From: Comamonas sp.
GTDB taxonomy: Bacteria; Pseudomonadota; Gammaproteobacteria; Burkholderiales; Burkholderiaceae_C
Direction: 5' to 3'
Length of the DNA: 64,000 nucleotides
Assembly (NCBI GenBank): GCA_036667955.1
Contig: JAVWTB010000011.1
Coordinates: forward strand, 85,045-149,044
Both the position numbers and the translations under genes were made by a program. The notes under the pieces are model-generated. The model made no database searches. It saw nothing but the letters and a program-made list of their open reading frames with translations, and had not been told where the DNA came from. Of this stretch, positions 9,030-43,771 are shown piece by piece. Numbering within the stretch: the stretch's first letter is position 1; each line of letters starts with the position of its first letter.

Positions 9030-11231
9030 TCACTGGGGCACAGTGCTTGCGCTGCCGCTGCCGCTGCCTTTGCTTTGCAGCGCCAAGCTGCGGATACCCG
9101 CAAAGTCAAACTGCTCCAGCCGGTCCAGCAGCGCTGCGGTAAAGGCTGCATGGGCCGTGCTGTTGGCATGGTGGTTGATCCAGCCCTCGATGTCGCTCAG
9201 GCGGCCATGCAGAGCCAACTCGGCCAGCTCATCCAGCGCAGCATCGCCGGGTGTGGCGACGGCCGCCAAGGTGGCCAGGGCAGGGCGGGTCGGCTGTCCC
9301 GGCCATGCGCTTGCCGTTGTCGAGCCGCTGGCCGGCGCTGCGCCGCTGGCATCGATGACCGGTACACATAGTTCGAAGGTAAAAGTGGTGCCCTGGCCGG
9401 CGGTGCTGCTCACCTCCAGGCTGCTACCCATGGCCATCAGGATGCGTTGCGAGATGAACAGCCCCAGGCCGGTGCTGCCGCCTTCGGCCTGGATCTGCTG
9501 GAAGGCATCGAAAATATCGGGTTTTTGGGCCAGGTCGATGCCAATGCCGGTGTCGCTCACGGAGAGGTGCAGCACACAGAATTCCCCCTCCTGCCGGGCG
9601 TTGACCATCAGGGTCACCACGCCATCGCGGGTGAACTTGGCTGCGTTGGAGACCAGGTTCAGCAGCACCTGTTGCAGGCGCTTGCCATCCATCGCCATGC
9701 GCCGGGGCAGGACGCCGCTCAGGTGGCAGAGGAAGTGGTTGTTCTGCTGCGCGCACAGCGAGACGGCGTAGTCGGAGATGTCATCGAGCAGAGCCTGCAG
9801 ATCGATGGGCGCGGGGCGCACGGCCAGCGGCTGCAGCTCGGACTTGGCGTACTCCAGCAGCTCATCGATCAGGTCGAGCTGGTATTTGACGCTGCGCTGA
9901 ATGGTCTTGACCAGCGCTTGCTGCTTGGGGGGCGCATCGGCCAGCAAGAGTTCGGAGTAGCCCTTGATCGTGGCCAGTGGCGCGCGCAGATCATGGCCGA
10001 TATAGCCCAGCACCTCGACCTTCTGGCGCTCCTTGGTCTGGGCATCGCTCAGCGCCGTGCTCAGGTTGGCATTCAAAGCCGAGGTCAGCATGGAGGCGTA
10101 TTTCTCATCCTGGCGGCGCACCACCATTTGGCCCAGGATATGGCAGGACAGCAGGATCAGCACGGTGCCGACGGCGGCCACCAGAACCGCCGTCCACAGG
10201 TGCTGCTCACGGATGGCGGCCAAGGGCTCCAGCGATGCCAAGGTCAGCAGCTGGTAGTGCGTATTGTTGAGCGGCTGGCGCTTCATCACGTAGGGCCTGC
10301 CATCCACCAGCCATTGGCCGGCAACGCCGTTGGTTGCCACCGGGTGGATGTCCATCGCATCGCCCAGCTCCTCTCCATCGTCATCGTCCGAGGGGTGCAG
10401 CACGCCGGCTGGCAGCATCGCGGCCACATTGCGCAGCATGAAGGGCTCGGACGAGCTGGTGGTGACGCGCCCCTGGCGGTTGACGATCAGCGCAATATGC
10501 CTACCCGTCAGGTAGTGCGCCATATCGGGCGCATCAAACTTGACGGTGACGGAGCCCTGCACCTCGTCGTTGGCATCGTCAATGCGGCTGGCCACGAAAT
10601 ACGAGGGAGTCTTGTTGATGCGTGCAATGCCAAAGGAGTGGCCGCTGCCGTCGCGCAAGGCGTTGTTCAGGTAAATGCGCCCCGCGTAAATCATGCCAAC
10701 GATGCTGTCCGGTGCCGCCCAGTTGCTGGCCGTGACGGTGTCGTCAGACAGGTTGTTCTGGTAGATGCGGGCATAGCGCAGGTCGCTGGCCAGCGCGTCC
10801 ATGAAGTCACCCACCTTGCGCACCAGCGGGTCCGTGGTGAACTGCGCGGCTCGCTGCTGGCGGGTCAGGGCTTCCGCACCGGGCTGGTCCTCGCGGTAAC
10901 GGGTAGCGAGCTGGATCACCTGGCTCTGGCTGGCCACCATGTTGGCCACGCTCACCATCTGGGTAAAAAGCCGGTCCACCACACGGGCGGTGGTCTCGGC
11001 CTCATAGGCGGCGCTCGATGCCTGGCTCTGGGTCCACTGGGTGGCGATGCGCTGCGATATCCACCAGCCCAAAGCGGCCACCAGACACAGCCATAAAAGC
11101 ACCAATGCAGCGGTGGCTCTGCGCACCAGGGGCAGCATCTCCCGTCCGCGTTTCATGGTGGGTGGCGGTGCTATGCCCGTCTTGCCACGGCCGGAATCGG
11201 CGGGCTGCGCACTGGTGTCGAGGGTGACCAT
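9030..11231 (-). CDS. Sensor histidine kinase with DctB-like periplasmic Cache domain
   Basis: Two TM segments flanking a Cache-like region (GRIYLNNAL..G.GHSFGI..INKTPSYFVASRI); H-box GHDLRAPL; N-box NLVSNAAKFT; G boxes DTGIGI, GSTGLGL; start uncertain (ATG 11138 plausible). Confidence 0.9.
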   Translation of the reverse strand: MVTLDTSAQPADSGRGKTGIAPPPTMKRGREMLPLVRRATAALVLLWLCLVAALGWWISQRIATQWTQSQASSAAYEAETTARVVDRLFTQMVSVANMVASQSQVIQLATRYREDQPGAEALTRQQRAAQFTTDPLVRKVGDFMDALASDLRYARIYQNNLSDDTVTASNWAAPDSIVGMIYAGRIYLNNALRDGSGHSFGIARINKTPSYFVASRIDDANDEVQGSVTVKFDAPDMAHYLTGRHIALIVNRQGRVTTSSSEPFMLRNVAAMLPAGVLHPSDDDDGEELGDAMDIHPVATNGVAGQWLVDGRPYVMKRQPLNNTHYQLLTLASLEPLAAIREQHLWTAVLVAAVGTVLILLSCHILGQMVVRRQDEKYASMLTSALNANLSTALSDAQTKERQKVEVLGYIGHDLRAPLATIKGYSELLLADAPPKQQALVKTIQRSVKYQLDLIDELLEYAKSELQPLAVRPAPIDLQALLDDISDYAVSLCAQQNNHFLCHLSGVLPRRMAMDGKRLQQVLLNLVSNAAKFTRDGVVTLMVNARQEGEFCVLHLSVSDTGIGIDLAQKPDIFDAFQQIQAEGGSTGLGLFISQRILMAMGSSLEVSSTAGQGTTFTFELCVPVIDASGAAPASGSTTASAWPGQPTRPALATLAAVATPGDAALDELAELALHGRLSDIEGWINHHANSTAHAAFTAALLDRLEQFDFAGIRSLALQSKGSGSGSASTVPQ

Positions 11232-11291
11232 TGGTTTATGTCTGAGATCAAGCTGCCGGCAGAACAGGGCAGGGCCCTGGTGGCACAGCGC

Positions 11292-12131
11292 TCATTGGAA
11301 TTTGGATGCCACCAGGTTTTGCAGCACTTGCGGATCGGCCTGGCATTCGCTGCGCAGTTGGGTGGGCGATTTTTGCCAGAATTTTTTGAACTCGGTGGAG
11401 AAGTTGGCTGAGTTCAGATAGCCCACTTCAAGCGCCACATCGGCAATGCTCAAGGTGCTCTGCGCCAGCATCAGAGCGGCTCGCCGCATGCGTTCCTGGC
11501 GGATGAATTCAAAGGCCGACAGGCCATCACAGGCTTCAAACACCATGTTCAGGCGGCGCATGGACAGGCCCAGGCTTTGGGCCACGTCCGAGCTCTTGAG
11601 CGAGGGATCATTGATGTGACCCAGAATGAATTCGGTGGCCACTTGCTTGAGCGTGAGATTGGCCGGGGACCGGCTCAAAGGCTGCACCGCTTGGTCAGCC
11701 AGCGCCGGGTGCTTGTCGTCTTGGGCAGGCCGCGCCTGGTGCTGGGCGAGTGTGAGGTGGATGCGAATCCGCTCCTGGATCTCTTCCACATAAAAAGGCT
11801 TGGTGATGTAGTCCACGCCGCCAGCCCGCAACCCGGACAACCGGTCTTCTTGCGCCACCAAGGCGGACAGAAAAATGATCGGAATATGCTGGGTGGCAGG
11901 GTTGGTTTTGAGCAGGCGCGCAATCGTGATGCCATTGCGTCCGGGCATGCGCATATCCAGCAAGATCAGGTCGGGCAGCAAGACGGTCGCTCTCGCATAG
12001 CCCTGGTCTCCATTGAGCGCGACGCTCACCCGGAATGCGGTGTTGCGCAAGGCTGCCACCAGCAGACGAAGCTGGTCTGGATCGTCGTCCACGATTAATA
12101 CATGTGGAGACTTTATTTCACCATTGCTCAT
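11292..12131 (-). CDS. Response regulator, REC + AraC-type HTH
   Basis: LIVDDD, LLDMRMP, DYITKPF; C-terminal RMRRAALMLAQSTLSIADVALEVGYLNSANFSTEFKK. Confidence 0.92.
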   Translation of the reverse strand: MSNGEIKSPHVLIVDDDPDQLRLLVAALRNTAFRVSVALNGDQGYARATVLLPDLILLDMRMPGRNGITIARLLKTNPATQHIPIIFLSALVAQEDRLSGLRAGGVDYITKPFYVEEIQERIRIHLTLAQHQARPAQDDKHPALADQAVQPLSRSPANLTLKQVATEFILGHINDPSLKSSDVAQSLGLSMRRLNMVFEACDGLSAFEFIRQERMRRAALMLAQSTLSIADVALEVGYLNSANFSTEFKKFWQKSPTQLRSECQADPQVLQNLVASKFQ

Positions 12132-12476
12132 AGGTTTTGTGGGCGCTTATTTGTCTGTAACGGTTGTGAATTGTCACACATGCAAGGCATTTTGCTGGTC
12201 ATTTGCTTTGAATCAATACCCCTGTCAGCACCGATTTTTGGCCGGTTTTGCTGAGGAAAAAGACAAGCCTTGAAGGCCCTGCGACAGCACAGGCGAGCCA
12301 TCCTGGGGCCTTGCCGAGAAAGCCCGAAAACGCGCATGAATCCTATGATTCTTGGCTGATTTATGCCCCGATCTAGCTGGGGCCGGATGGGGTTGGAGAC
12401 ACCGCTGAGGGCGAGGTCCATCGGCCCCGAACGGCAGAGAAAAGGCGGGTCGAAATATGCCGCTGAGCTGTTGTGC

Positions 12477-12510
12477 CAATACCCGCTTTTCAAAAATTTC
12501 TTGGGTATTG
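12477..12510. promoter_or_regulatory. Inverted repeat CAATACCC-N18-GGGTATTG in the AT-rich divergent promoter (third copy at 12214-12221)
   Basis: Read directly from the sequence; lies between the response regulator and the surface-protein gene. Confidence 0.45.
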
Positions 12511-12709
12511 ATGTAATTCCAAAAAATTTATAAAAAAACCAAATAACAAATTTTGTTACGTATGTACAAATCCTCTGAGAGTTCTTCTATGCCTGCCGCA
12601 TGGGCGGTGGGACGAGCCGATGAATCGCAACTGGAGGTTTTGGAAAATGGCAAATTTATCTGGGATGGATGGGGCAGTGGCGCACCGCAAGATGCGCAAA
12701 GGACGAAAT

Positions 12710-14872
12710 ATGCCCAAGGTGCTCAAAGCCTTGCCGGCAGCGCTGCTGGCCTGGTCTTGCATGCTGGGCATGGCCCAGGCAGCCGTGTATGCCCCCGACA
12801 ACTTTGCCAATGCAGGCGGCAGCAATCTGGAGACCATGGTCATGGTCAAGGACGGCAGTGGTCGCGTGGTGATTGGCGGCTTGTTCAACACCGTGGAAGG
12901 CCAGGCTGGCTACCAGGGCGTGGCACGTTTCAAAGCGGATGATTCGCTGGACACGAGCTTCAAAGTAGCCACCAACGCCTATGTGAAAGCCATTGCTATC
13001 CAAAGCGATGGGAAGATCCTTATTGGTGGCGATTTCAACTATGTCACAGGAACCGGAAGTGCTTCCACAGTGACCAGTTCGGGAATAGCGCGCTTAAATG
13101 CCGACGGCACAGTTGATTCCACATTCCACAATGTGCCGCTGTTTAAAGTGAACAGTCCAGTACGCAGCATTGCCGTTCAGCCGGATGGAAAAATCGTTGT
13201 AGGTGGGTATTTCACTTCTTTTGATAGTGTGCCGCGCTCCTATCTGGTGCGATTGAACACCGATGGTACGCAAGACACCAGCTTTACTGCTTTGCCCAAC
13301 AATCAAATTGAAGATGTGAAGTTGCAGGCAGATGGAAAGATGGTGATCGCGGGTTCTTTTACCCAGGTGCAAGGTACGAACATTCGTGGTGTCGCGCGTC
13401 TGAACGCCGATGGCTCGCTGGACACCAGCTTCGATGCCGGCCAGTCGATTGGTGGTCGCAACGGCGCATGGGATGGTTCCTGGCCCGTCTACCAACTGGC
13501 GCTGCAGGATGACGGCAAGATTGTGTACGCCGGCGGTACGCACCGCTATGCCGATGAGATCCACTGGCGCATTGCACGCCTGAACACCGATGGCACGGTG
13601 GACAGCAGCTTCCAGTCCTATGTCAGCTGGTGGGCTTCCTCGATCGCCTTGCAGAACGTGGGTGGCGAGCAAAAGATTGTGGTGGGCGGTGACTACAGCA
13701 GAGCGGGTGTGACCAACCCTGCAACCGGTGCCGTGGTGAGCGATGCCGCGCGCCAGCGCATTGCGCGTTTCAACGCCGATGGCTCGCTGGACACCGAGTT
13801 TGACACCTCCTTCAGCGCCAACAGCTGGGTCTGGAGCGTGCTGCCCAACAGCGATGGCACCGTCTATCTGGGTGGCAAGTTCACCAGCGTGGCTGGCATG
13901 GCACGCCGAGGCATTGCCCGTTTGGCTGAGCTGGATCCCACCAAGCAGGTCATCAACTTCTTGGAGCCAGAGCCCGGCACCTATTCGGCGCTGAATGGTG
14001 CCTCCGTGTCCTGGAACCCCACGCCACCTACCACCAGCAGTGCCAATTTGCCGGTGACCTACACCAGCATCACCACCTCGGTGTGTACGGTGAACGCGTC
14101 GACCGGCGCAGTGACCCTGGTGACGCCGGCAGTGACGGGTCTGTGCACCATCGAAGCCAACGCAGCAGCGGGTACCCAGACGGTGGGTGGCCTGGTCTAC
14201 AACGTCGACCCGGCAACGCCGGTGCGCCAGAGCATGCAAATCGATGCGCCACCGGACCAGAGCATCAGCTTCCCGCAGCAAACCTCGCCGCGCAATGTGG
14301 CCGCAGGGACGTTCAGCATTGACCCTGCGGCGACGGCCAGCTCGACCCTGGCGGTGAGCTACTCCAGCCTGACCCCGTCCATCTGCACGGTATCGGGCAC
14401 CACGGTAACGCCGCTGTCCGGTGGCCTTTGCACCATCGCTGCCGACCAACCTGGCGGTACTTTGGGTGTGGTGGCCTTCAATGCCGCGGCGCAGGCGACC
14501 CAGAGCGTGACGGTGCAAAGCGCACAGACCATTGCGTTCCCGGCCCAATCGGCCCACAGCGTGGTGACGGGCAGCAGTTTTGCACTGGCGCCGGCCGCAA
14601 CGGCCAGCTCGGGCCTGGCGGTGAGCTACGCCAGCCTGACGCCTGCCGTCTGCACAGTGACCGCAGGCTCCGTGCGCGTTTTGGCCACGGGTACCTGCAC
14701 CATTGAAGCCAACCAGGAAGGCAATGACTTCTTCAGCGTGGCTGAGCCGGTGACCCAGTCCATCACCGTCACGGCGCTGCCGCCTGCAACCCCTGTGCCC
14801 ACGCTGGGCACCTGGGCGCTGGCCATGTTGGCCGCGATGCTGGGCTTTGTCGGCTTTCGCCGCCGCGCCTGA
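12710..14872 (+). CDS. Surface protein: 7 delta-60-type beta-propeller repeats, 3 Ig-like repeats, IPTL-CTERM sorting tail
   Basis: ATG 12710 after AAGGA; signal peptide; repeats Q.DGKI..GG.F....IARLNADG..D.SF x7; repeats ATASS.L.VSY.SLTP..CTV...CTI.A x3; tail TPVPTLGTWALAMLAAMLGFVGFRRRA. Confidence 0.88.
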   Translation: MPKVLKALPAALLAWSCMLGMAQAAVYAPDNFANAGGSNLETMVMVKDGSGRVVIGGLFNTVEGQAGYQGVARFKADDSLDTSFKVATNAYVKAIAIQSDGKILIGGDFNYVTGTGSASTVTSSGIARLNADGTVDSTFHNVPLFKVNSPVRSIAVQPDGKIVVGGYFTSFDSVPRSYLVRLNTDGTQDTSFTALPNNQIEDVKLQADGKMVIAGSFTQVQGTNIRGVARLNADGSLDTSFDAGQSIGGRNGAWDGSWPVYQLALQDDGKIVYAGGTHRYADEIHWRIARLNTDGTVDSSFQSYVSWWASSIALQNVGGEQKIVVGGDYSRAGVTNPATGAVVSDAARQRIARFNADGSLDTEFDTSFSANSWVWSVLPNSDGTVYLGGKFTSVAGMARRGIARLAELDPTKQVINFLEPEPGTYSALNGASVSWNPTPPTTSSANLPVTYTSITTSVCTVNASTGAVTLVTPAVTGLCTIEANAAAGTQTVGGLVYNVDPATPVRQSMQIDAPPDQSISFPQQTSPRNVAAGTFSIDPAATASSTLAVSYSSLTPSICTVSGTTVTPLSGGLCTIAADQPGGTLGVVAFNAAAQATQSVTVQSAQTIAFPAQSAHSVVTGSSFALAPAATASSGLAVSYASLTPAVCTVTAGSVRVLATGTCTIEANQEGNDFFSVAEPVTQSITVTALPPATPVPTLGTWALAMLAAMLGFVGFRRRA

Positions 14873-14904
14873 TCCTTTGCGGTCATAGGTGGACCGCGAA
14901 CGAT

Positions 14905-14944
14905 GCATACGGGGGGTAGATACATGTATCTGCCCCCCGTATGC
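14905..14944. repeat. 40-bp near-perfect palindrome
   Basis: GCATACGGGGGGTAGATACATGTATCTGCCCCCCGTATGC; a single T.G mismatch pair, no spacer. Confidence 0.95.
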
Positions 14945-15061
14945 CATGTGCCTCAGTGCCCGCGTCGGTAGCGATGCGGTGGCGCTGAGAGGGTACAGAG
15001 TGCTCCTGGGGAGCGCTGCAGAACCCTGGTCGATTCAGATCGATGGGAAGAGGAGAGAGCC

Positions 15062-16654
15062 ATGCCATGTCTTCGCAAATACCTTCCAGCCTTCGCACTT
15101 TTGGAGGCCATGGCCGCCGGCAGTGCCTCTGCAGCGCCGCTGGAATGGGATTACACCGTCACGGCCCGATTTGTGACGACGACTGGTGCCACGACGTTCA
15201 AGGGCGCAGGCCCGGGCAACGCGAACGGATGCGAACTGGTCTCCGCCACCAATATCACCTGGGGGGCTTGCCCCAGTGGCCCGGCAGGGGAGGGGCGCAG
15301 CGGTATTGGCGTTTCAGGCAGCGAGCAGACCGGCACCCTGGTGGCCAATGGTGGCGCCGAGTACGCCAATGTCTACACCCACACCAATAACGTCGTGACT
15401 TCTGCCTTTGCCACCTTGGCCAGCGCAACGATCAGCACCACGCTGGGTTTGAGGGCCAAGGGCAGCAGTGATCCCTACACCTATGAGAACTTCATCTATA
15501 CCATCAAGTTCTCTGAAACACCCAATGGCAGCGACCCGACCACCTGTGTGGTGCCCGGCGGCGACCCCTGCAGCGACATCTGGGTGCTGGACGGCTCGGT
15601 CAACCGTACTGTGGCCATGAATGGCCAGGAATTTACCTTCAGCTTTTTCCCCGAGCCTGCCGCCATTCCCTTGGATCCCGCGATTTGCGAGGCCGCGGGG
15701 GCGGAGGTCGGCTGCATCGGCTTTACCACGCAGGAGAACATGGCCAACGCGATCCCCTTCATGATGAACCTGACGCAGATCGCCCATGTCTCGGGCCGGG
15801 TGTATGCCGAGGGCAGCATCCCTGCCAACACGCAAGACGATGGCAGCGGTGTTGACATGGGGGCAGCCGTGGCGGTGTCTTTGCTGTGCACGGGCCCCGA
15901 TTACAGCGCGGGCCCGATCGATACCGCATCGGATGGCAGCTTCCGCTTTGAGAATGTGGCCGCTGGGGCGGACTGCGCCATCACGACCACGCCGCCGGCC
16001 GGTTTTCAGATGGCCTACACACAACAAGGCAGCACCGGGGAGAGCGGCGCGCCTGGCGTGCTGAACACCGGCGTTGCCGGCAGCACGGCGCTGCAGACGA
16101 TTGCGGTCAGCGTGCCGACCGAAGGATCAGCGGGCAACCTTTTTGCGCTGCGCGCGGTGAGCAATATGCGCAGCGCCACGGTGTGCACACCAGGCACAGC
16201 GGCCGCAGGCACCACGGTCAGCTGCACGACGACTTGCAGCAATGTGGGCAGCAGCACCGCCCTGCAGGGGTTTTGCAGCATCCCCAATGCGGCCAGTTTG
16301 CCCGGTAGCCCCACGCCCGTGTGCAGTGCGCCCGCTGATGTGCCGCCCCATGGCACGCTCAGCTGCACGCTGAACTTTGCCATGGCGGGCAGCGCCAGCA
16401 TCAGCGTGCTGGGCGGCACGGGTGCGGACAATGACAGCGATGGAGGGCGGGATGCCTCTGCGGGTGACAACGCGTCGAGCGCAGCCGTCGCACCACAGGC
16501 CACTATCCCCTCCACCCCCACAACGCCCACCAGCCCGGCCAGCCCCACGCCGGTGCCCGGCCCGGGCGGCTTTGCGCTGGTTGTGCTGGCGGGCTGGGTG
16601 GGCCTTATCGCATGGCGTCAGCAGCGGCTGCCAGCGCAACGCCGCGTGCGATAG
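15062..16654 (+). CDS. Cys-rich surface protein with THxN-type N-terminal domain, Ig/DUF11-like modules and IPTL/PEP-CTERM-like tail
   Basis: RBS GAGGAGAG; signal peptide; YTHTNN motif and FSETPNG...CSDIWVL; tail PTPVPGPGGFALVVLAGWVGLIAWRQQR. Confidence 0.78.
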   Translation: MPCLRKYLPAFALLEAMAAGSASAAPLEWDYTVTARFVTTTGATTFKGAGPGNANGCELVSATNITWGACPSGPAGEGRSGIGVSGSEQTGTLVANGGAEYANVYTHTNNVVTSAFATLASATISTTLGLRAKGSSDPYTYENFIYTIKFSETPNGSDPTTCVVPGGDPCSDIWVLDGSVNRTVAMNGQEFTFSFFPEPAAIPLDPAICEAAGAEVGCIGFTTQENMANAIPFMMNLTQIAHVSGRVYAEGSIPANTQDDGSGVDMGAAVAVSLLCTGPDYSAGPIDTASDGSFRFENVAAGADCAITTTPPAGFQMAYTQQGSTGESGAPGVLNTGVAGSTALQTIAVSVPTEGSAGNLFALRAVSNMRSATVCTPGTAAAGTTVSCTTTCSNVGSSTALQGFCSIPNAASLPGSPTPVCSAPADVPPHGTLSCTLNFAMAGSASISVLGGTGADNDSDGGRDASAGDNASSAAVAPQATIPSTPTTPTSPASPTPVPGPGGFALVVLAGWVGLIAWRQQRLPAQRRVR

Positions 16655-16756
16655 GCGAGGCGGAGGCCGCAAGCGCATCTGCGCTGTGCTGCGCTCCTGC
16701 GGCGGTGGCGGCGGTGTGCAGAGGCTTTGACCGGGCGTTTTGCGAGGGACGTTTTT

Positions 16757-17962
16757 CTAGTGGTGGCCCATCCCCGCGATGGCGCTACGGCGCTTGCGGG
16801 CGCTGCTGCCATAGGTGTCCCACAGCGCCACGCCCAGGATGAGCGCCGTCGTCAACCAGCCCAGCACCCACAGCTTGCAGGCCTGGCTGAGCGGCACAAG
16901 CACCAGCAGCAACAAGGCGCCCACCCAGTGCGAAGCGGGGAGCGAGCCATACACCGTCTTTTTGTAGATGGCACTGCCCAGCAGGTAGATGGCGGGCCCG
17001 GCGAGCAGGATGGCGATTTGCGGGGCTGCTGCCAGTGCAAGGGGGTGCGCTAGCACCAAGTCGTTGCCCACCGCAGAGGCGATCACGCCGGCGATCAGGA
17101 TGGCATGCACGTAGTGGAAATAGGCAGCGATGCGGCCTGGATCGTCGGCGCGGGTGATGGCCTCGGTCGCATCCTTGCTGGAGGTGCCAAAGTACAGCCA
17201 CCACATAGCCAGGGTGCCGACAAAGGTGGCGCCCAGGGCCATCAGCACCTGCCATTCCCAGGCCTTGGTATCTGCCAGGGTGGCGCCACTGGCCAGCAGC
17301 GTCTCGCCAAGAGCCACAATCACAAACAGCTGGCAGCGCTCGGCCATGTGGCCGCCCTCGATGGTCCAGTCCCGGGTCTGGCTGCGGCCCAGGCCTGGCA
17401 GCGCAAAGCCGAGCATGGGCGCCACATACTCGCACAGCACGGCCACCAGCCACAGCAGCAAGCGCAGCGGTGGCTCGGCCAGCGCTCCAGCCATCCAGAA
17501 CAGGGCAGAAATACAGACCCAGCCGAGCATGCGACGGTAGTTGTGCGCCAGCGGGTGCCAGGCAGGCAGCTGCCACCAGATGAAGGCGCTGCGCCCCACC
17601 TGCATGGCCACATAGGCCAGGGCAAAGACCAGCCCCCGCTCGGCGAAGGCCTCGGGAATGCTGGAGGCCATCAGCAAGCCCAGCAGCATGGTGCAAAACA
17701 GCATGCCGCGGATGCGGGGCGTCTGGGGATCGAACCAGTTGGTGACCCAGCAGGTGTACTGCCAGCCCAGCCAGACGGCAAACCAGAGCACCAAGGTCTG
17801 CGCGACACCGATGAAGCTCAGCTGGTGCAGCAGCTCATGGCTGAGCTGGGTGACGGCGAACACATAGACCAGGTCAAAGAACAGCTCTTCATAGGTCACT
17901 CGGGCGTGGTGACCGTCGCGCTGGCGCAGCAAGGGGTGGGAGAAGGCGGGAGTGATAGGCAT
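16757..17962 (-). CDS. ltrA: Low temperature requirement protein A family membrane protein
   Basis: ELFFDLVYVFAVTQLS, HMAERCQLFVIVALGE, MWWLYF motifs. Confidence 0.92.
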   Translation of the reverse strand: MPITPAFSHPLLRQRDGHHARVTYEELFFDLVYVFAVTQLSHELLHQLSFIGVAQTLVLWFAVWLGWQYTCWVTNWFDPQTPRIRGMLFCTMLLGLLMASSIPEAFAERGLVFALAYVAMQVGRSAFIWWQLPAWHPLAHNYRRMLGWVCISALFWMAGALAEPPLRLLLWLVAVLCEYVAPMLGFALPGLGRSQTRDWTIEGGHMAERCQLFVIVALGETLLASGATLADTKAWEWQVLMALGATFVGTLAMWWLYFGTSSKDATEAITRADDPGRIAAYFHYVHAILIAGVIASAVGNDLVLAHPLALAAAPQIAILLAGPAIYLLGSAIYKKTVYGSLPASHWVGALLLLVLVPLSQACKLWVLGWLTTALILGVALWDTYGSSARKRRSAIAGMGHH

Positions 17963-17980
17963 GGGAGTCCTTGGGGATTT

Positions 17981-18250
17981 TTATGCCTGGGACAGCACGC
18001 GGGTGATGAAGGCCGCCAGCAGCACCGGCACCATCAGCACGATGAGCAAAATCAGCGCCTCATCGCGCACGCTGTAACCCGCCTGCGTGACCCCCACCCA
18101 CATATTGGTGCAAGCGATCAGCAGCCACACCGGCATGAACAGCTTGGCTGCTACCAGCATGCCCACCGTGCTGGCTGACCACAGCCAGCCAAACAGCACA
18201 AACACCCCGAGCAGCAGCAGGCCACCGCCCATCACCATCAGTACATGCAT
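17981..18250 (-). CDS. Small membrane protein (about 3 TM), hypothetical
   Basis: 89-aa hydrophobic ORF in the same orientation, between SDR and ltrA; GAGAG upstream. Confidence 0.75.
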   Translation of the reverse strand: MHVLMVMGGGLLLLGVFVLFGWLWSASTVGMLVAAKLFMPVWLLIACTNMWVGVTQAGYSVRDEALILLIVLMVPVLLAAFITRVLSQA

Positions 18251-18350
18251 ATCGACACTCTCAAGCGTTGCTGAAGAAATTGCGGCTCTTGCGCCGCAAA
18301 CGTGCAGGCGCTGGCCCTGGGGCCGTTGTGACCCCAGGTTCTGCGCGCCC

Positions 18351-19127
18351 TTACTTGGTGGTGTAGCCGCCGTTGATCAGAATCGTCTGGCCCGTGATCC
18401 ACCAGCCATCGGTCACCAGGTGGCGGATAAAGGGGACGACATCTTCGATATCGGTCAGGCCCGTCTTGCTGAAGCCCGACAAGGCCGCGGCGGTTTTGTG
18501 GTAGGCCACTGCATCGGCGCCTTCTGCGGGGTAGAAGAAGTTGGTGTCCATCGGGCCGGGGCCGACGGCGGTGACCGAGATGCCACGTGCACCGAACTCT
18601 TTGGCCGCTGCGCGGGTGTAGTGCTCCACGGGGGCCTTGGTGCCGGCGTAAGACGAGTAGAAAGGGGTGAACGCGCCCAGCAAGGAGGTGACCAGGGTGA
18701 CGACTTTGCCGTTGTCGTTGAGCTGCAGGCCCGCTTCCTTCAAAAAGAAGAACGCCGCCTTGCTGTTGGCGTTGGACATCTCGTCAAACTCTGCCTCGGA
18801 GATCTCGACCATCGGCTTTTTGAGCACCTTGCCCACGGTGTTGATGGCGATGTCAGGCCGGCCCAGCGCTGCCACGGTGTCGGCGAACAGCTTTTGCACC
18901 GCGCCTGCGCTGCTCAGATTGCCTTGCAAGGCAATCGCCTTGGCACCCAGCTTTTCCACCGCTGCCACGGTGGCCAGCGCTTCATCGCGGCTGGCGGCGC
19001 TGTTGTAGTGGATGGCGACGGCTTTGGCGCCATGGCTGGCCAGGTCACGGGCAATCAGGCCGCCCAGGTTTTTTCCTCCCCCGGCGATCAGAACGACTTT
19101 GTCTTTGACAGTGTGGGCTTTAGGCAT
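18351..19127 (-). CDS. Short-chain dehydrogenase/reductase
   Basis: VVLIAGGGKNLG, INTVG, catalytic YAGTK, PGPMDT, ITGQTILINGG. Confidence 0.95.
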   Translation of the reverse strand: MPKAHTVKDKVVLIAGGGKNLGGLIARDLASHGAKAVAIHYNSAASRDEALATVAAVEKLGAKAIALQGNLSSAGAVQKLFADTVAALGRPDIAINTVGKVLKKPMVEISEAEFDEMSNANSKAAFFFLKEAGLQLNDNGKVVTLVTSLLGAFTPFYSSYAGTKAPVEHYTRAAAKEFGARGISVTAVGPGPMDTNFFYPAEGADAVAYHKTAAALSGFSKTGLTDIEDVVPFIRHLVTDGWWITGQTILINGGYTTK

Positions 19128-19283
19128 GTTGCATCTCCAAAAAAGTGATGTGAATGGTGGGTATCACCATGGAGATTTTTATTGTCTTTTCCAATCAATC
19201 AACATTGCTAAATCGATGGATTTTTTGCTTATTGGCGTGAATGCCATTTATTTTTGAATTTATTTCTTAGCCGGTCTTGGCCG

Positions 19284-19312
19284 ATAGCTGCCCCAATAGC
19301 TGCCCCAATAGC
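19284..19312. repeat. Short tandem repeat (ATAGCTGCCCCA)x2.4
   Basis: Read directly; intergenic. Confidence 0.8.
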
Positions 19313-19381
19313 GGGCAATGGCTGCTGGTATTTTTGCGGCCATCCCTGCCGGCAAGCGCTGCGTTGCCAGGCGGCAGTGCT

Positions 19382-20314
19382 TCAGCCTGGCTGGGCCATG
19401 CTGCGCAGCCAGGCCAGCAGATCGGCCTGCACGCTGCCCGGCGGCATAGGCTGGGGGGACAGCAGGCAGTACTGCGAGCCGTCATCCACAAAGCCCAGTG
19501 GGGCGGCCAGCAATCCATGGGCCAGGTCGTCCTGCACCAGGTGCCAGGGGCCCATGGCCACGCCCAGCCCGGCCACGGCCGCTTGCAAGCTGAAATAGAA
19601 ATGCTCAAAGCTTTGCCCCGCCTGCTTGGACAAGGGCTGGCCCGTGGCCTGGGCCCAGTCCTGCCAAGCAGCGGGCCGCGTGCGCGTGTGCAGCACAGGG
19701 GCATCGGGGCGCAGGGCGCTGCGGCGTTTGCCGCCGCTGAACCAGCGCGCCTGCTGGTCGGGGCGGCAAACCGGGCCAATGCGTTCTGCAAACAGAGGCT
19801 CCACATGGCAGCCCTGGGGCCAGGCAAAGTCATCGCGGCGGATGGCCAAATCGATGCCGCTGGCAAAAGAAAAGGGGCCGCCACCAGCGACCAGATGCAA
19901 CTCCAAGCCCGGGTGCCGCGCCTGGAAATCCGGCCAGCGCGGAATCAGCCAGCGCATCAGCAAGGTGGGCTCGCAGGACAGCACCCAGCGCAGTTGCCGG
20001 CGCGCGCGGGCCCGCAGCTCGCCCACGGCCTGGCGCATCAGATCTAGCCCCTGGCTGACCGCCTGGGCCAGCGAGCGCCCCTCGGCGGTGAGGAAGACGC
20101 GCCGGCTGCGCCGCTCAAACAGTGCCAGGCCCAGCTCGTCCTCCAGCAGGCGCACAGCGCGGCTGACGGCGCCATGGGTCAGGTGCAGCTCGTCGGCGGC
20201 GCGGCTGAAATTCTCCAGCCGCGCGGCGGCCTCGAAGCAGCGCAGTGCCAGCAAGGAGGGCAGGCGGGTGTCAGACAATGGTGAGTCAGACTCACCATGT
20301 TTGTTAAAAATCAT
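19382..20314 (-). CDS. LysR-family regulator (GcvA/AmpR-like)
   Basis: LPSLLALRCFEAAARLENFSRAADELHLTHGAVSRAVRLLE; true start probably about 35 nt downstream of 20314. Confidence 0.95.
   Translation of the reverse strand: MIFNKHGESDSPLSDTRLPSLLALRCFEAAARLENFSRAADELHLTHGAVSRAVRLLEDELGLALFERRSRRVFLTAEGRSLAQAVSQGLDLMRQAVGELRARARRQLRWVLSCEPTLLMRWLIPRWPDFQARHPGLELHLVAGGGPFSFASGIDLAIRRDDFAWPQGCHVEPLFAERIGPVCRPDQQARWFSGGKRRSALRPDAPVLHTRTRPAAWQDWAQATGQPLSKQAGQSFEHFYFSLQAAVAGLGVAMGPWHLVQDDLAHGLLAAPLGFVDDGSQYCLLSPQPMPPGSVQADLLAWLRSMAQPG
20278..20298. promoter_or_regulatory. LysR recognition site ATGGTGAGTC-A-GACTCACCAT
   Basis: Perfect inverted repeat containing T-N11-A (TGAGTCAGACTCA), between divergent lysR and lysE. 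Confidence 0.75.
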
Positions 20315-20379
20315 CGTTTTTCATGGCGCTGCATGGCAGGCATCATGCGGGCTGTTTTTGCTATTGCACAGGATACGCC

Positions 20380-21003
20380 ATGACGGAATTGCTAGCGGTT
20401 ATCACCATCACCTTGCTTGCGGTCATCAGCCCGGGGCCTGACTTTGCGATGGTGACGCGCAACAGCCTGCTGCTGTCGCGGCGCGCCGGGGTACTGACGG
20501 CCCTGGGTATTGGGCTAGGTGTGCTGGTCCATGTCAGCTACACCTTGCTGGGCCTGGGGCTGCTGATCCAGCAGTCGCTGTGGCTGTTCAATGCCATCAA
20601 GCTGGCGGGCGCTGCCTACCTGGTGTACCTGGGGCTGAAGATGCTGCGCGCCCAGCCTGCAGGTGCAGTGGCCGCTGCCGAAGCCGCCGCTGCGCCGCTG
20701 TCGGACGGGGCGGCTTTGCGCACCGGCTTTCTCACCAATGCGCTGAACCCCAAAACCACGGTGTTCATGCTGAGCCTGTTTTTGCAGGTGGTGCAGCCCC
20801 AGACGCCGCTGGCCGTACAGATTGGCTATGGCGCCTTCATATCGCTGGCGCACATCGCCTGGTTCAGCCTGGTGGCGCTGTGCTTTTCGGCAGGCGCCGT
20901 GCGTGGCCGTTTGCTGGCAGCACGCCACTGGATTGACCGCGCCTTTGGCGGCTTGCTGGTGGGCTTTGGCGTGTTGCTGGCGCTGTCACGCGGCACGCGC
21001 TGA
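20380..21003 (+). CDS. LysE/RhtB family translocator
   Basis: ISPGPDFAMV, GAAYLVYLG, GFLTNALNPK. Confidence 0.95.
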   Translation: MTELLAVITITLLAVISPGPDFAMVTRNSLLLSRRAGVLTALGIGLGVLVHVSYTLLGLGLLIQQSLWLFNAIKLAGAAYLVYLGLKMLRAQPAGAVAAAEAAAAPLSDGAALRTGFLTNALNPKTTVFMLSLFLQVVQPQTPLAVQIGYGAFISLAHIAWFSLVALCFSAGAVRGRLLAARHWIDRAFGGLLVGFGVLLALSRGTR

Positions 21004-21031
21004 GAGCGGCCCAGCCACGCTATCAATGCGC

Positions 21032-22618
21032 TTAGCGACGGCGGCGCTGGCGGAGGATGCCGAGGGTGCCCAGCAGCAAGGCCAGCAAGGACAGGCTATA
21101 GGCCCCCGCCGTCGGTACCGGGGTGGGCGTTGGCGGCACGGCAGCGGGTTGTAGCGCGGAGACGCGAACCGTTGCCGTGGTGCATACCGTTTGGTTAGGC
21201 GCTGCCAGGCACACGTTGTACTGGTAGCTCACCGGGCTGGTCAGCCCACCCGCTGGCGGCACAAAGCTACAAATACCCGCTGCACAGCTGACTGAGCCCG
21301 CGGCGGGTGGCGTGGCCAAGCTCAGGCTCGTGGGGTCTACCTCCCCGTTGCTGCCGCTGTCGTTGCCAGCCACGGCCGTTGCGGCGCTGCTGGTGTGGGT
21401 GGCCAAGGTCACTGCATCGTCCACAGCCGTGATCGTGGGAGGGCTGAGTGGGAGTTCGGCCGTGTTGTTGTTGGCGATGGGATCGGTCGGGCTGCCCGGT
21501 GCGGGCAGCGCAGTGACGGTATGGGTGCTGGCCGCCGTGATGCCCGGGCCGGACCAGGACACCGTATACACGGCTGTCTGCCCGGAAGTCAAAGGCTGCG
21601 CAACGGCACTGAGGGGCCCGGTGCCCGATGGGCTGGCGCAGGGTGCACCCGAAGGCTGCAGCGCGCATGACCAGCTGGCCGTAGCGCCGTTGGCTGCCGC
21701 AGGCAAGGGGTCTGACACCAGCGCGGTGGTCGCATCAGGCCCGTTGTTGTAGACACTGAAGGTATAGCTGTAGTTGTTCTGCGCACCGGCGGGCACTGCA
21801 GATACCGCGCTGGCATTCACGACGATTTCCGCCAGCGTTTGGCGGCTCATCGTGAATAAGGTGTCATCCCAGGATGCCTTGTTGTCGCTGTTGGCCGGCG
21901 TACGGTAGAGGTAGAAGCGCAAGGCGTAGGGCGTGCCGGGCTGCAGCGCGATGCCGGGGCCGGGGCCATCCGGTGCGCGGACCACTTGAAAACCATCCCC
22001 AGCCACTGCGCTGACGTCATCCACCTGCTGTATTTGCTCGCCAACCGGATGGCCGCTGGCGTCCACGATATAGGCGGCATAGCCAAAGGCGCGCGGATGC
22101 AGTTTGTCGTTCAGGTTCCAGCGTTTTGCAGTGAAGGCGCCATTGACATAGAACAGCGCAGCCGATGCGGTCGCATCCGCATACTGCATGGTGCCGGTGG
22201 TGAAAGGGAAATCGATGTACTGCCCGGCAAGTAGGGCCGCTGCGGCCGTATTGGTGGCCAGACCAGAGATGATTTGAAAATCCGGAAAAGTAGGATCGGG
22301 ACTGGCGCTCAAGCCTGTGCCAAAGCGCTGTGGGCCGGTGCTGGACAGGAAGGTCGTGTCATGCGTTGGACCGGTAACGGCGGTCGTGCCTGTGCTGTCC
22401 TCGCCCGAGCCCGGATACCAGTCCTGGGTCAGCGTTCCTGGCGGGCGATTGCTCATCCATCCGGCGACCCAGCCGTCATAGCCAAAGCCGCTGGCAGGCG
22501 CAAACACATAGGGCTGTGCCAGGCTGGGGCCGGCGGCCCCTGCGAGCCACAAGGCCGCCATCCCTAGGCGGTATCGACCGACCATCCGAGCACACATCGA
22601 CTTCATGAATCCATCCAT
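21032..22618 (-). CDS. Surface protein with DUF11-like and Ig-like modules and IPTL-CTERM tail
   Basis: Signal peptide; YSYTFSVYNNGPD.....VSDPLP...DPIANNN (DUF11-like); AVDD..T...VAGND module; tail TPTPVPTAGAYSLSLLALLLGTLGILRQRRRR. Confidence 0.82.
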   Translation of the reverse strand: MDGFMKSMCARMVGRYRLGMAALWLAGAAGPSLAQPYVFAPASGFGYDGWVAGWMSNRPPGTLTQDWYPGSGEDSTGTTAVTGPTHDTTFLSSTGPQRFGTGLSASPDPTFPDFQIISGLATNTAAAALLAGQYIDFPFTTGTMQYADATASAALFYVNGAFTAKRWNLNDKLHPRAFGYAAYIVDASGHPVGEQIQQVDDVSAVAGDGFQVVRAPDGPGPGIALQPGTPYALRFYLYRTPANSDNKASWDDTLFTMSRQTLAEIVVNASAVSAVPAGAQNNYSYTFSVYNNGPDATTALVSDPLPAAANGATASWSCALQPSGAPCASPSGTGPLSAVAQPLTSGQTAVYTVSWSGPGITAASTHTVTALPAPGSPTDPIANNNTAELPLSPPTITAVDDAVTLATHTSSAATAVAGNDSGSNGEVDPTSLSLATPPAAGSVSCAAGICSFVPPAGGLTSPVSYQYNVCLAAPNQTVCTTATVRVSALQPAAVPPTPTPVPTAGAYSLSLLALLLGTLGILRQRRRR

Positions 22619-22845
22619 TTCTATGAATCACCCTGGTCGGGTTTTGCTGCGCCAGTGCACAGACCAGGGCCTTGCGCCAACGTCTGCTTGAAGGCGCCGC
22701 TGGGCCGTAGGAACGTTGCTAGTTGTAAGAATAATCAACAAAATGCCTGAATTTTAAAAACCAGCTCCCATTTTTTGTTGACCCGTAGCAGAAATAAAAC
22801 GCGCCGTTTCGCAGGCTGGCAAGCTGCTGTTTGCATGCCTTGTGC

Positions 22846-22877
22846 AAAAGAAACAGGCTCCGCAGCGGCGGAGCCTG
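22846..22877 (-). terminator. Rho-independent terminator downstream of the FHA gene
   Basis: Stem CAGGCTCCGC/GCGGAGCCTG with 4-nt loop, followed by TTTCTTTT on the minus strand. Confidence 0.8.
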
Positions 22878-22918
22878 GTGGCATGCGCAAGCCCAGGGGT
22901 TGGGGCGCGTCGGGGCGG

Positions 22919-23239
22919 TTAAGAGGTGTCTGGCGACGACGCGGCAGAGCCCTTTTGGATGTATATCTCGGTGGGTCCCACCTTGACACGATCGCCGGCA
23001 TACAGCACCTGGCGCTTGACCCTGGCGCCGTTGACAAAGATGCCGTTGGTGCTGTCATGGTCCTCCACCATCAGCACCCCGATGTAGTAGGTGAAGGCAC
23101 CGTGGTCCCGGCTGACGCCCTGGTCCTCCAGCCGCAGACCGCAGCCCAGGCCGCGACCGATCTGTGTGCGACCTTTGCTGAGCTTGAGCTGGCTAGGAGA
23201 CGACGATGTGGCGTAACGAACCTGAATGAGCGCTGGCAC
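22919..23239 (-). CDS. Stand-alone FHA domain protein
   Basis: IGRG, VSRDH, DHDSTNGIFVNG, GDRVKVG: pThr-binding R, S, H and N residues present; GGAGG RBS. Confidence 0.9.
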   Translation of the reverse strand: MPALIQVRYATSSSPSQLKLSKGRTQIGRGLGCGLRLEDQGVSRDHGAFTYYIGVLMVEDHDSTNGIFVNGARVKRQVLYAGDRVKVGPTEIYIQKGSAASSPDTS

Positions 23240-26854: not shown

Positions 26855-27804
26855 CCAGAGCATTCCTTCTTGCCTGTGGCCTGTCGGCCTGGGCGCTCGG
26901 CGCCGCCGCCCAGACGCCCCTGCAGGTGATCGCGCAGCAGCCGCCAGGCAGTGGATCGGACGCGATGACCCGCGCCTGGGGCGAATGCACCGGGCGGCTG
27001 ATGGGGCGCCCGGTGGTAGTGCAGAACAAGGCGGGGGCCAATGGCATCCTGGCCATCAACTACCTCAAGGGCCAGCCAGCGGATGGCTCGTTTGCGATGA
27101 CGATTGGCATGTCGCAGATGACGATCACGCCCTATGTGCACCAGCAGATGCCCTATGACCCGCTCAAGGACTTTGCCGGTGTGGCGATGATTGGCTCGTC
27201 GCCGCTGGTGCTGGTGGTGCCGGCGGGCGCTGGCGTCAGCAAGCTGGCCGATCTGGAGAAGGTGGCCAAGTCCCAGGCCGGCGGGCTGAACTTTGGCTCG
27301 CCCGGCAAGGGCAGCCCGGCCCATTTGCTGACCACGGCGTTGACCGATGCCATGCACTGGCCTGCGACCCATGTGCCCTTTGTGGGCGAGAGCGCAGGCC
27401 TGACGGCCTTGATGGGCCAGCAGATCCAGGCGATGACGCTGGTGCTGAACACCGCAGCGCCCCAGGTCAAGGCGGGCAAGCTGGTGCCGCTGGCAGTGTT
27501 TGCCAGCCAGCGCTCGGCCGTGCTGCCCGATGTGCCCACCATCGCCGAAGCCGGTGGGCCGGCCGTGCTGGCGCGGCCGTCCTGGATTGCAGTGGTGGCC
27601 AAAAAGGGTACGCCGCCGGAGTTCATCAAGACCTTGAACGAGGCCACCAACCAGTGCTATACCGACCCGGTCTATGCCAATAGCATGGACAAGATGGGCG
27701 TGACCTTGATGCGCAGCCAGCCCGCCGATGTGCTGGGTTTTGCCGAGCGTGACATCGCGGTCTGGAAGCCTTTGATCGATAAATTGGGATTGGCCACGCA
27801 ATGA
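26851..27804 (+). CDS. Bug/TctC family tripartite tricarboxylate transporter substrate-binding protein
   Basis: QPPGSGSD, VVVQNKAGANG, LPYDPLKDF-like MPYDPLKDF, LPDVPTIAEAG. Confidence 0.93.
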   Translation: MTRAFLLACGLSAWALGAAAQTPLQVIAQQPPGSGSDAMTRAWGECTGRLMGRPVVVQNKAGANGILAINYLKGQPADGSFAMTIGMSQMTITPYVHQQMPYDPLKDFAGVAMIGSSPLVLVVPAGAGVSKLADLEKVAKSQAGGLNFGSPGKGSPAHLLTTALTDAMHWPATHVPFVGESAGLTALMGQQIQAMTLVLNTAAPQVKAGKLVPLAVFASQRSAVLPDVPTIAEAGGPAVLARPSWIAVVAKKGTPPEFIKTLNEATNQCYTDPVYANSMDKMGVTLMRSQPADVLGFAERDIAVWKPLIDKLGLATQ

Positions 27805-29311
27805 GTTTGGTAGAACACAGCGCCGTTGAGTTGCGCGCACTGATCCAGAGCCGGCAAATCTCGCCGGTCGAGTTGCTCGATGACTGCATCGCCCGCATGC
27901 AGGCCCTCAACCCGGCGGTGAATGCGCTCTGCGCCTCCGACTTTGAGCGTGCCCGCATTGCCGCCAAGCTGGCCGAGGAACAGGTGGGGCGGCGCAGCCA
28001 GTTACCGCTCTTGCATGGCCTGCCCTTGGGTGTGAAGGATTTGCAGGCCACTGAAGGCCTGCTGACCACCAGCGGTAATGTGCGGCTGCGTGGCCTGTGC
28101 CTGTCAAAGACAATGCCTTCGTGGCCCGGCTACGCGGCCAGGGCGCGATTGTGACGGCCAAGACCAATACGCCCGACATGGGCGCGGGTGCCAACAGCCG
28201 CAACCCGGTTTGGGGCGCCACCGGCAACCCTTTCAATCCGGATCTGAATGCCGGGGGCTCATCGGGTGGCTCGGCCGCGGCGCTGGCCACCGACATGTTT
28301 CCGCTGTGTACCGGCTCGGACACCGGCGGCTCGCTGCGCATTCCTGCGGCGCTGTGCGGCGTGGTCGGCTTGCGCCCTTCGCCGGGTTTGATTGCCAATG
28401 ACGACCGGCCGCTGGGCTGGTCGGCCATCTCGGTGCTCGGCCCCATGGGCCGGGATGTGGCCGATACCGCGCTGATGATGCAGGCCAGCATGGGCCCGCA
28501 CCCCATGGACCCGCTGAGCATGGGCGTGAGCCATGCGCCCGTCTGGCCCGTGCCGGAGATGGACCTGCGCGGGCTGCGCGTGGCCTATACCGAGGACTTT
28601 GGCACCTGCGCGGTGGACCCGATGGTGCGCCGCGCCTTCCGCCAGCGGGTGAAGGCCCTGGCCGCTGAGGTGGCATGCATGGATGCCTTGCCCTGGAACC
28701 TGGAAGAGGCCCACCGCTGTTTCGATATCATCCGCGCCGAGAGCTTTGTCGCCGCCTTTGCCGATATCTACCGCACGGCCCCCGAGACCCTGGGCCCCAA
28801 CGTGCTGGCCAATGTGGAGATGGCCGCGCGCATCAGCCTGGGCGACCGGGCCTGGGCGCATCTGGCGCAGACCCGCATCCAGCGCATGTTCCAGCGCACG
28901 TTTGCGCAATACGACCTGGTGCTGGCCCCGGTGACCCCGCTGTCGCCCTTTCCCTGGACGCAGCTCTATGCGCAGGAGGTGGATGGCAAAGCCCAGCGCA
29001 ACTACTACGAATGGCTGAGCCTGACCTATGTGGTGACCCTGGCGACCAACCCGGCGCTGTCGCTGCCCTGCGGCCGTGATGAGGCGGGCATGCCCTTTGG
29101 CCTGCAGATGATTGGCCCGCTGCACCAGGATGGGCGCCTGCTGGCGATGGCCGCAGCGGTGGAAAAGATGGGCCTGCACCACCCGGACTTTGCCCGCCCA
29201 CGCCCCGATCTGTCAGCCCTGGCACAGCCCCGGCCCGAATTGCGCAGCATCGTCACCCATCCGCCAGAGTTGGGTGGCGCCGCGCAGGCGGAGGTCGGCC
29301 AGGCGGTCTAA
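27801..29311 (+). pseudogene. Amidase (amidase-signature family) interrupted by a single -1 frameshift at about 28097
   Basis: ORF 27801-28154 carries LGVKDL; ORF 28097-29311 carries GGSSGGS and GSDTGGSLR; one extra G in CTG|GTG CCT restores one continuous frame. Could be a sequencing error. Confidence 0.85.
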
Positions 29312-41885: not shown

Positions 41886-41947
41886 GGGCTAGTGGATGGG
41901 CGGGGTGTGAACGCGGTCATGCGCGTCTGCCGGGACCGGCACGCCCC

Positions 41948-43651: not shown

Positions 43652-43771
43652 TATGAGTCTCCTTGCAGCCAGGCGTTGACGCCGGGCGCTATGGGTGAAT
43701 GCTGCCGAGCAAATACGGCCAACACGTGTTGCGTGTTGGCCGTATACCGGGCTGCGCAAAATGGCAGGGGC

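Follow-up and report, generated by a model that had tools for sequence, protein, structure and literature searches.

A predicted AraC-type two-component switch beside genes for IPTL-CTERM surface proteins in Comamonas and other Comamonadaceae

Here we describe a two-component system of Comamonas sp. that faces, across an AT-rich intergenic region, genes for exported surface proteins with IPTL-CTERM sorting tails. The system lies in a 64,000-nucleotide (nt) stretch of contig JAVWTB010000011.1 (assembly GCA_036667955.1, positions 85,045 to 149,044 of the forward strand), referred to below as the window and numbered from its first letter. Comparison with related genera leads us to favour, as the more probable reading, that the phosphorylated response regulator activates a sigma-70 promoter of the adjacent operon of surface-protein genes (the cargo), and that regulator and kinase would in this way form a locally acting two-component switch for exported IPTL-CTERM surface proteins. 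The evidence that carries this reading is the repeated pairing of the regulator with tailed cargo across Comamonadaceae lineages, together with a conserved tandem repeat that keeps a fixed distance to a promoter-like element.

The regulator (11292–12131, minus strand, 279 amino acids) combines a receiver domain (REC; Response_reg, 90.9 bits) with an AraC/XylS-type helix-turn-helix (HTH_18, 67 bits), and the sensor histidine kinase (9030–11231, minus strand, 733 amino acids) carries HisKA (55.8 bits), HATPase_c (85.7 bits) and two hydrophobic segments. The two genes are read from the same strand, 60 nt apart with the regulator upstream, and diverge from the cargo genes; an H-box histidine, an HATPase_c domain, a receiver aspartate and lysine, and adjacent co-oriented genes make them a classical two-component pair. 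The intergenic region between the regulator and the first cargo gene (12132–12709) measures 578 bp and has a GC content of 0.49 versus 0.636 for the whole window. Positions, profiles and composition thus bear out the original prediction, made from the letters of the window, of a REC-AraC regulator and a kinase transcribed away from an AT-rich region of roughly 580 bp. A delta-60/DUF5122 propeller protein with immunoglobulin (Ig)-like repeats and an IPTL-CTERM tail (12647–14872, plus strand) is followed by a protein with a THxN domain and a degraded IPTL-like tail, TPVPGPGG... (15062–16654, plus strand), and a DUF11 (CLIPPER) protein with an IPTL-type tail lies 4.4 kb further on (21032–22618, minus strand), all three being where they had been claimed. 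For the delta-60 gene, the ATG at 12647 is the more likely start, because GGAGG (12633–12637) precedes it and because both this start and the N-terminus MANxS... are conserved in Diaphorobacter and Comamonas JUb58; with it the intergenic region shrinks to 515 bp.

The neighbourhoods of eight ortholog loci and 14 metagenome loci were read, and the C-termini of their open reading frames (ORFs) were scored with a small tail profile built from annotated examples. Once near-identical loci had been merged, 13 lineages of Comamonadaceae remained that offer enough upstream sequence and a regulator of 53% identity or more. The divergent neighbour of the regulator carries an IPTL-type tail in nine of them, namely the window, Comamonas JUb58 (L087), Diaphorobacter (L001), Ottowia (L003/L094), Xylophilus (L090), C. 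odontotermitis (L005), a C. piscis paralog (L089), L095 and L100. A further locus, L096, is a probable case but was not counted, because some 530 nt separate the nearest tailed ORF from the conserved site described below. Several of the cargo tails in other genera pass the cut-off of the curated IPTL-CTERM model TIGR04174 (24.7–36.6 bits). Co-occurrence of the regulator with IPTL-CTERM genes in Comamonadaceae had been set beforehand as the test on which the proposed link could fail, and the survey found the pairing kept at this frequency. The genes flanking the module vary by genus (ileS-lspA, mutS, SapC with an AMP-binding enzyme, or an aldehyde dehydrogenase), and so does the promoter-proximal cargo, which is the delta-60 protein (family B) in the window and in JUb58, family A in five lineages, and family C in Ottowia and Xylophilus.

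Orthologs of the regulator share 84–89% identity within Comamonas, 69–73% in Diaphorobacter, Ottowia and Xylophilus, and 65% in C. odontotermitis; a further, paralog-like group stands at 52–57%. In an alignment of 24 homologs, K110 is invariant and the phospho-acceptor D58 nearly so (at least 90% of sequences). More remote regulators of the same architecture (at least eight found, in Pusillimonas, Duganella, Pseudoduganella and Massilia, at 32–45% identity) had no IPTL- or PEP-like tail nearby. Because these remoter relatives, among the matches listed, lack such neighbours, the association with tail genes is confined to the Comamonadaceae clade.

Comparison of the intergenic regions across genera also brought out a 32-nt element, CCAAA-N15-CCAAA when read towards the cargo, in which the two half-sites stand in tandem at a spacing of 20 bp. 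In the window this candidate operator, AATTCCAAAAAATTTATAAAAAAACCAAATAA, occupies 12515–12546 of the plus strand and faces the delta-60 gene, with half-sites at 12519–12523 and 12539–12543. A de novo motif search by expectation-maximization, seeded only from Diaphorobacter and C. odontotermitis and with the window not used for seeds, returned the same element positions in six genera. Scored with a weight matrix from five other genera, the window element reaches 33.6 bits, and the next independent site in the 64 kb reaches 10.9 bits. Nine of 12 lineages of held-out metagenome loci have the element as well, scoring 21–36 bits, oriented alike and no more than 1 kb upstream of the regulator. In 1.76 Mb of unrelated control DNA, searched on both strands, six matches reached 20 bits, a far lower rate than in the held-out loci. 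A search for repeats confined to the one intergenic region of the window missed the operator, which emerged only when genera were compared.

Across 12 aligned lineages, a TAnAAn hexamer, usually with TG before it, stands at a constant distance from the proximal CCAAA. Its counterpart in the window is the -10-like element TG-T-ACAAA (12563–12570, plus strand; hexamer TACAAA at 12565–12570), a promoter assignment that we infer from this conservation. The constant distance therefore places the proximal half-site right beside a weak -35: the sequence at the -35 position, ATAACA (12543–12548), overlaps the last base of that half-site and directly follows it. The spacing from site to -10 is kept despite changes of the downstream gene and of the intergenic length, which ranges from about 320 to 920 bp. 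A search for the sigma-54 consensus at up to two mismatches gave no match in 12132–12709, and a profile search of the regulator returned only Response_reg and HTH_18/HTH_AraC, with no sigma-54 activator domain. The original prediction of an AraC-output, sigma-70-type module tied to IPTL-CTERM genes is upheld by the pairing in most lineages, by the conserved site and by the lack of sigma-54 features, but not in two of its parts, the inclusion of the DUF11 gene and a fixed dCache kinase as partner, as set out below.

A second, inverted copy of the element lies 92–96 nt before the regulator start codon in Ottowia (L003 at 9907, L094 at 7907) and in the metagenome lineages L095–L098 and L103 (L096 at 7907, L097 at 1410, L098 at 339, L103 at 674), and this regulator-proximal copy would fit autoregulation. 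On the regulator side of the intergenic region, GTGACAATT is found about 40 nt before the regulator ATG, in the same place in the window, L087, L088, L001, L003 and L090, and may be an extended -10 of the regulator gene; the corresponding candidate for the regulator-kinase promoter in the window, TGTGACAAT, occupies 12170–12178 of the minus strand, conservation again being the ground for the putative assignment. Two close relatives with no cargo, L088 (9304–9590) and L092 (7301–7590), keep the operator at 36.5 bits. Their -10 region is gone, since the sequence diverges immediately after CCAAATAAC, and the point of divergence looks like the scar of a cargo deletion. An H-NS-like gene in the C. 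odontotermitis locus (L005, 19110–19403) was seen to have an operator-like match upstream (19676–19707, 21.1 bits) that faces it.

The delta-60 and THxN genes are separated by 189 nt, and a terminator scan of 14873–15061 found no terminator-like site. Between the THxN gene and the DUF11 gene lie five unrelated genes, encoding LtrA, a small membrane protein, a short-chain dehydrogenase, LysR and LysE. The region upstream of the DUF11 gene (22619–22918) contains no operator-like match and shares nothing with the element. L091 and L099, where regulator identity is 86%, have neither the delta-60 nor the THxN gene and keep the DUF11 gene; in L088 and L092 all three cargo genes are absent and regulator and kinase are kept. 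As the DUF11 gene lacks the site and comes and goes independently, the cluster of three of the original prediction resolves into a predicted operon of two, delta-60 and THxN, and a DUF11 gene that these comparisons indicate to be a separate transcription unit, not tied to the regulator by present evidence. Just upstream of an IPTL-tail gene in the window, in JUb58 and in C. odontotermitis we also observed a small FHA-only gene (106–116 amino acids; window 22919–23239, L087 1–42, L005 18026–18352), which is retained in relatives that have lost the DUF11 gene.

All three proteins of the window begin with a signal-peptide-like N-terminus and end in TPVP-x, a hydrophobic helix of about 18 residues and R/K-rich residues; the tails read TPVPTLGTWALAMLAAMLGFVGFRRRA, TPVPGPGGFALVVLAGWVGLIAWRQQR and TPVPTAGAYSLSLLALLLGTLGILRQRRRR. 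The shared TPVP-helix-basic tail that had been proposed is therefore present in all three by sequence, but curated models recognize it unevenly. The delta-60 tail passes both IPTL-CTERM models (TIGR04174, 26.9 bits against a cut-off of 20.5; PF18203, 32.1 against 20.8), the DUF11 tail passes only the Pfam model (PF18203, 21.5 against 20.8; TIGR04174, 16.7 against 20.5), and the THxN tail, its signature degraded to PGPGG, matches neither. The THxN ortholog of JUb58 (66% identical) carries the signature PTLGVW and scores 25.2 bits, and the sorting tag of the THxN protein may be impaired in the present strain. Laid side by side, the tail segments read TPVPGPGG in the window (16570–16654) and TPVPTLGV in L087 (5738–5830).

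The delta-60 protein matches TIGR02608 (171 bits) and DUF5122/PF17164 (235 bits), has a signal peptide with a long N-terminal region, and is about 70% identical to proteins of the Diaphorobacter and Xylophilus loci. The THxN protein (530 amino acids) consists of a signal peptide, the THxN domain (NF038125, 157.7 bits against a cut-off of 85; T106, H107 and N109 invariant in the alignment), a region of about 250 amino acids and the tail. Among the 14 homologs covering the whole domain, 13 are proteins of 264–285 amino acids that end in VPEP... with a PF07589 match, and the fourteenth (P0275, 272 amino acids) has none. The PEP-CTERM tail that NF038125 places directly after the domain is missing from the window protein, which, as this comparison indicates, has exchanged sorting tags. 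The modelled THxN domain (predicted local distance difference test, pLDDT, 78) finds its match in the domains with which the RTX adhesins MpIBP and FrhA bind peptides (E 2e-8, query-normalized template modelling (TM) score 0.53). Because one cargo protein is a beta-propeller with Ig-like repeats and the other has a domain like the peptide-binding domain of RTX adhesins, the cargo proteins are plausibly adhesins or matrix proteins. The DUF11 protein of the window matches PF01345 at 26 bits, and DUF11/CLIPPER proteins and a pertactin-like passenger are among the other cargo families of the island. The proteins at L001 144–2144 and L005 3383–5701 have pertactin/autotransporter-passenger-like domains and an IPTL-like tail; of the 432 positions of the autotransporter beta-barrel model they cover no more than the first 112. 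Each of the three cargo genes of the window has short, scattered matches among metatranscriptome contigs of wastewater and lake water, a weak sign of expression. Elsewhere, an IPTL-CTERM domain has been predicted in the S-layer protein of Methylomirabilis lanthanidiphila (PMC8671808).

The kinase probably starts at M32 (11138) and runs from a first transmembrane helix through a periplasmic, DctB-like dCache domain and a second transmembrane helix to HisKA and HATPase_c, and closes with some 90 amino acids that form a C-terminal domain specific to the family; its H-box (IGHDLRAPL) and the ATP-binding boxes DTGIGI and GSTGLGL are intact and legible in the sequence. The claim of a Cache-type kinase was not borne out by the Pfam dCache_1 model (PF02743; 14.6 bits against a cut-off of 45, E 0.025), but it was by comparison with DctB. 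By sequence the sensor matches that of DctB (3e4o) over the membrane-distal domain (E 6e-12). An AlphaFold model (pLDDT 82.8, with long terminal helices) has the double PDC fold between two transmembrane helices, and Foldseek pairs it first with DctB 3e4o (E 9e-13, target-normalized TM score 0.77) and then with Mlp37, McpH, Tlp3, PctC and KinD. Since the Pfam score falls far below threshold, the Cache assignment stands on the fold and on the DctB sequence match, and the model gives the sensor a dCache fold, a type of fold that binds small ligands.

Residues 32–377 of the kinase, with the dCache sensor and the second transmembrane helix, find counterparts at 60–71% identity in the sensors of GGDEF diguanylate cyclases of many proteobacteria. 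These cyclases make up more than 100 clusters, among them proteins of Achromobacter, Bordetella, Comamonas testosteroni, Delftia, Pseudomonas aeruginosa and Agrobacterium; for the four such clusters that were looked up, no characterized member and no ligand was found. Over its full length, the window kinase is 64% identical to a 758-amino-acid Diaphorobacter kinase whose gene lies at a distance of 5 kb from that of the regulator. Next to the regulator itself, Diaphorobacter and Ottowia encode another kinase, of 551 amino acids with a multi-transmembrane N-terminus, which shares only residues 378–722 of the window kinase (the core and the C-terminal domain of about 90 amino acids) at 63–71% identity. 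The junction of sensor and transmitter lies at RRQDEKYA, near codon 377 (about position 10100), and the window kinase has the look of a dCache sensor in wide use fused to a transmitter specific to the regulator family. As Comamonas and Xylophilus have the transmitter core joined to the dCache sensor, and Diaphorobacter and Ottowia have it joined to the multi-transmembrane sensor, the input module is exchangeable between genera, and the dCache kinase is not a fixed partner of the regulator. Several regulators have no kinase nearby at all.

In the switch that we propose, a small periplasmic ligand would change the activity of the kinase, which would phosphorylate D58 of the regulator. Two regulator molecules would then bind the tandem repeat, with the proximal half-site abutting the weak -35 as in class II AraC/XylS activators, and recruit sigma-70 RNA polymerase, and the delta-60 gene and probably the THxN gene would be transcribed. 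The cargo would be exported by Sec, and an exosortase (XrtH by family annotation) with its gene elsewhere in the genome would then process or anchor the C-terminal tails. As had been noted beforehand, none of the multi-transmembrane ORFs of the window is an exosortase (they encode transporters, LtrA, an M50 peptidase, kinases and LolC/E-like proteins), nor was one found within 10 kb of the regulator in eight annotated loci.

Several points weigh against such a switch. The link between regulator and cargo is comparative throughout, and a strict sigma-70 consensus scan of 11200–17000 returned no promoter, so that the promoter call comes from conservation alone. The element is AT-rich and could be bound by another protein, and the window has no second copy near the regulator. 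In four lineages, close Comamonas relatives among them, the regulator is present with no cargo beside it (L088/L092, L091/L099 and L101/L104, the last two lacking the upstream gene). Moreover, the cargo proteins without their tails fall into about five families common to the genera (55–72% identity), and because cargo is homologous across genera the co-occurrence must in part reflect inheritance of one ancestral island rather than independent associations. It is accordingly conceivable, if in our judgement rather unlikely, that regulator and cargo are merely co-inherited on an island, that the regulator has other targets, and that the repeat is bound by an H-NS, Fis or IHF-type protein or serves as an UP element. 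Besides the cargo homology, the AT-rich intergenic region, the close relatives that retain regulator and kinase after cargo loss and the H-NS-like gene of the C. odontotermitis locus speak for co-inheritance, and so does base composition: the GC content at third codon positions is 0.72–0.77 in the regulator and the three cargo genes (11292–16654 and 21032–22618) against 0.78–0.86 in their neighbours, the kinase included, which suggests an island-like origin, or else a different ancestry of the kinase. Against it, the spaced tandem repeat and its fixed distance to the -10 survive swaps of the downstream gene and changes of intergenic length, matches to the element are rare in control DNA, and the second copy that faces the regulator in several lineages is what would be expected of an autoregulated regulator and not of a generic nucleoid protein.

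The regulator might instead bind the site as a repressor or anti-silencer, with the signal relieving repression or H-NS silencing of a horizontally acquired operon. A proximal half-site that abuts the -35 is also compatible with occlusion of RNA polymerase, and the AT-rich region and island-like composition would agree with silencing; the poor -35 (ATAACA) and non-consensus -10, however, are typical of activator-dependent promoters, and AraC/XylS regulators with tandem sites adjoining the -35 are usually activators. We hold this alternative to be distinctly unlikely. Even less can be said for a single regulon of the two-component system that embraces all three IPTL-tail genes, DUF11 included, which we regard as improbable: the tail type is common to the three and they are absent together in L088 and L092, but the DUF11 gene has no operator-like match upstream, is separated from the operon by five unrelated genes, and occurs in L091 and L099 without the other two. 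Taken with these alternatives, activation of the adjacent two-gene operon is the reading that we retain as probable.

The nearest precedent in concept is the PrsK/PrsR (with PrsT) regulatory system of PEP-CTERM genes, which was found by matching phylogenetic profiles and in which PrsR is an NtrC-type sigma-54 enhancer-binding protein whose targets have -24/-12 promoters (Haft et al. 2006, PMC1569441). Both are two-component systems tied by comparative genomics to genes with a C-terminal exosortase-type sorting signal, with a conserved cis-element upstream of cargo genes and large intergenic regions. Unlike PrsR, the window regulator has an AraC-type output with no sigma-54 domain and no -24/-12 promoter, it adjoins its presumed target, and the tail is of the IPTL and not the PEP type. 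Because output domain, sigma factor, promoter and tail type all differ, the window system is an analogue of PrsK/PrsR and not a member of it.

The likeness to DctB/DctD (structures 3e4o, 2zbb and 3by9) lies in a homologous periplasmic sensor, a double PDC/dCache between two transmembrane helices of a membrane histidine kinase, although overall identity to the window sensor is only about 17–18%. DctD, the partner of DctB in C4-dicarboxylate sensing, is a sigma-54 activator that controls a transporter, whereas the partner in the window is an AraC-type regulator beside surface-protein genes. With class II AraC/XylS activators (XylS, RhaS, MelR) the window regulator shares HTH_18, a tandem repeat of about two helical turns and a proximal half-site abutting a weak -35. 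Those proteins sense ligands through an N-terminal effector or dimerization domain; the window regulator has a phospho-receiver instead, and its input would come from a membrane kinase. The shared domains also invite comparison with YesM/YesN of Firmicutes, in which a REC and AraC-type helix-turn-helix regulator is likewise paired with a kinase that has an extracytoplasmic sensor. YesM-type kinases, however, use the His_kinase (PF06580) phospho-acceptor domain and their systems sit beside sugar-uptake genes, whereas the window kinase has HisKA (PF00512) and adjoins genes for surface proteins.

Three further observations concern the surroundings of the module. An NMT1-type ATP-binding cassette (ABC) transporter nearby was considered as a target of the regulator and rejected, its synteny holding only within Comamonas. 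An amidase is split into two overlapping ORFs (27801–28154, 117 amino acids, profile positions 1–70; 28097–29311, 404 amino acids, positions 77–445), which is a frameshift, a pseudogene or a sequencing error. A separate signalling cluster at 39528–44479 comprises a CHASE2 histidine kinase, a FecR/LysM protein and an OmpR-type response regulator.

Hardly any work exists on IPTL-CTERM proteins or on the exosortase presumed to act on them. Our full-text literature search found almost nothing on IPTL-CTERM and nothing on XrtH or its regulation, and no paper that links an AraC-type regulator to exosortase substrates or deals with the pairing of this regulator with IPTL-CTERM genes. The locus is a concrete and testable entry point into this sorting system, at which a regulator, an operator and a ligand-binding sensor, once defined, would together offer an experimental handle on when these proteins are made, and a means of inducing them for the study of their processing and function. 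A bolder proposal casts this family of regulators as the dedicated master switch for the IPTL-CTERM (XrtH) system in Comamonadaceae, with CCAAA-N15-CCAAA defining the regulon as PrsR does for PEP-CTERM, with modular input, and with a dCache version that shares its sensor with diguanylate cyclases. We consider this a speculative possibility and on balance doubtful; if it is true, the same extracellular cue would raise cyclic di-GMP and put adhesin-like proteins on the cell surface. Wastewater and biofilms are rich in Comamonadaceae, and PEP-CTERM proteins have already been implicated in floc formation in such settings (PMC9850573, PMC9012009). If the switch proposed here is real, sets of proteins with exosortase-type sorting signals would be controllable not only through the sigma-54 scheme of PrsK/PrsR but also through a local module of sigma-70/AraC type.

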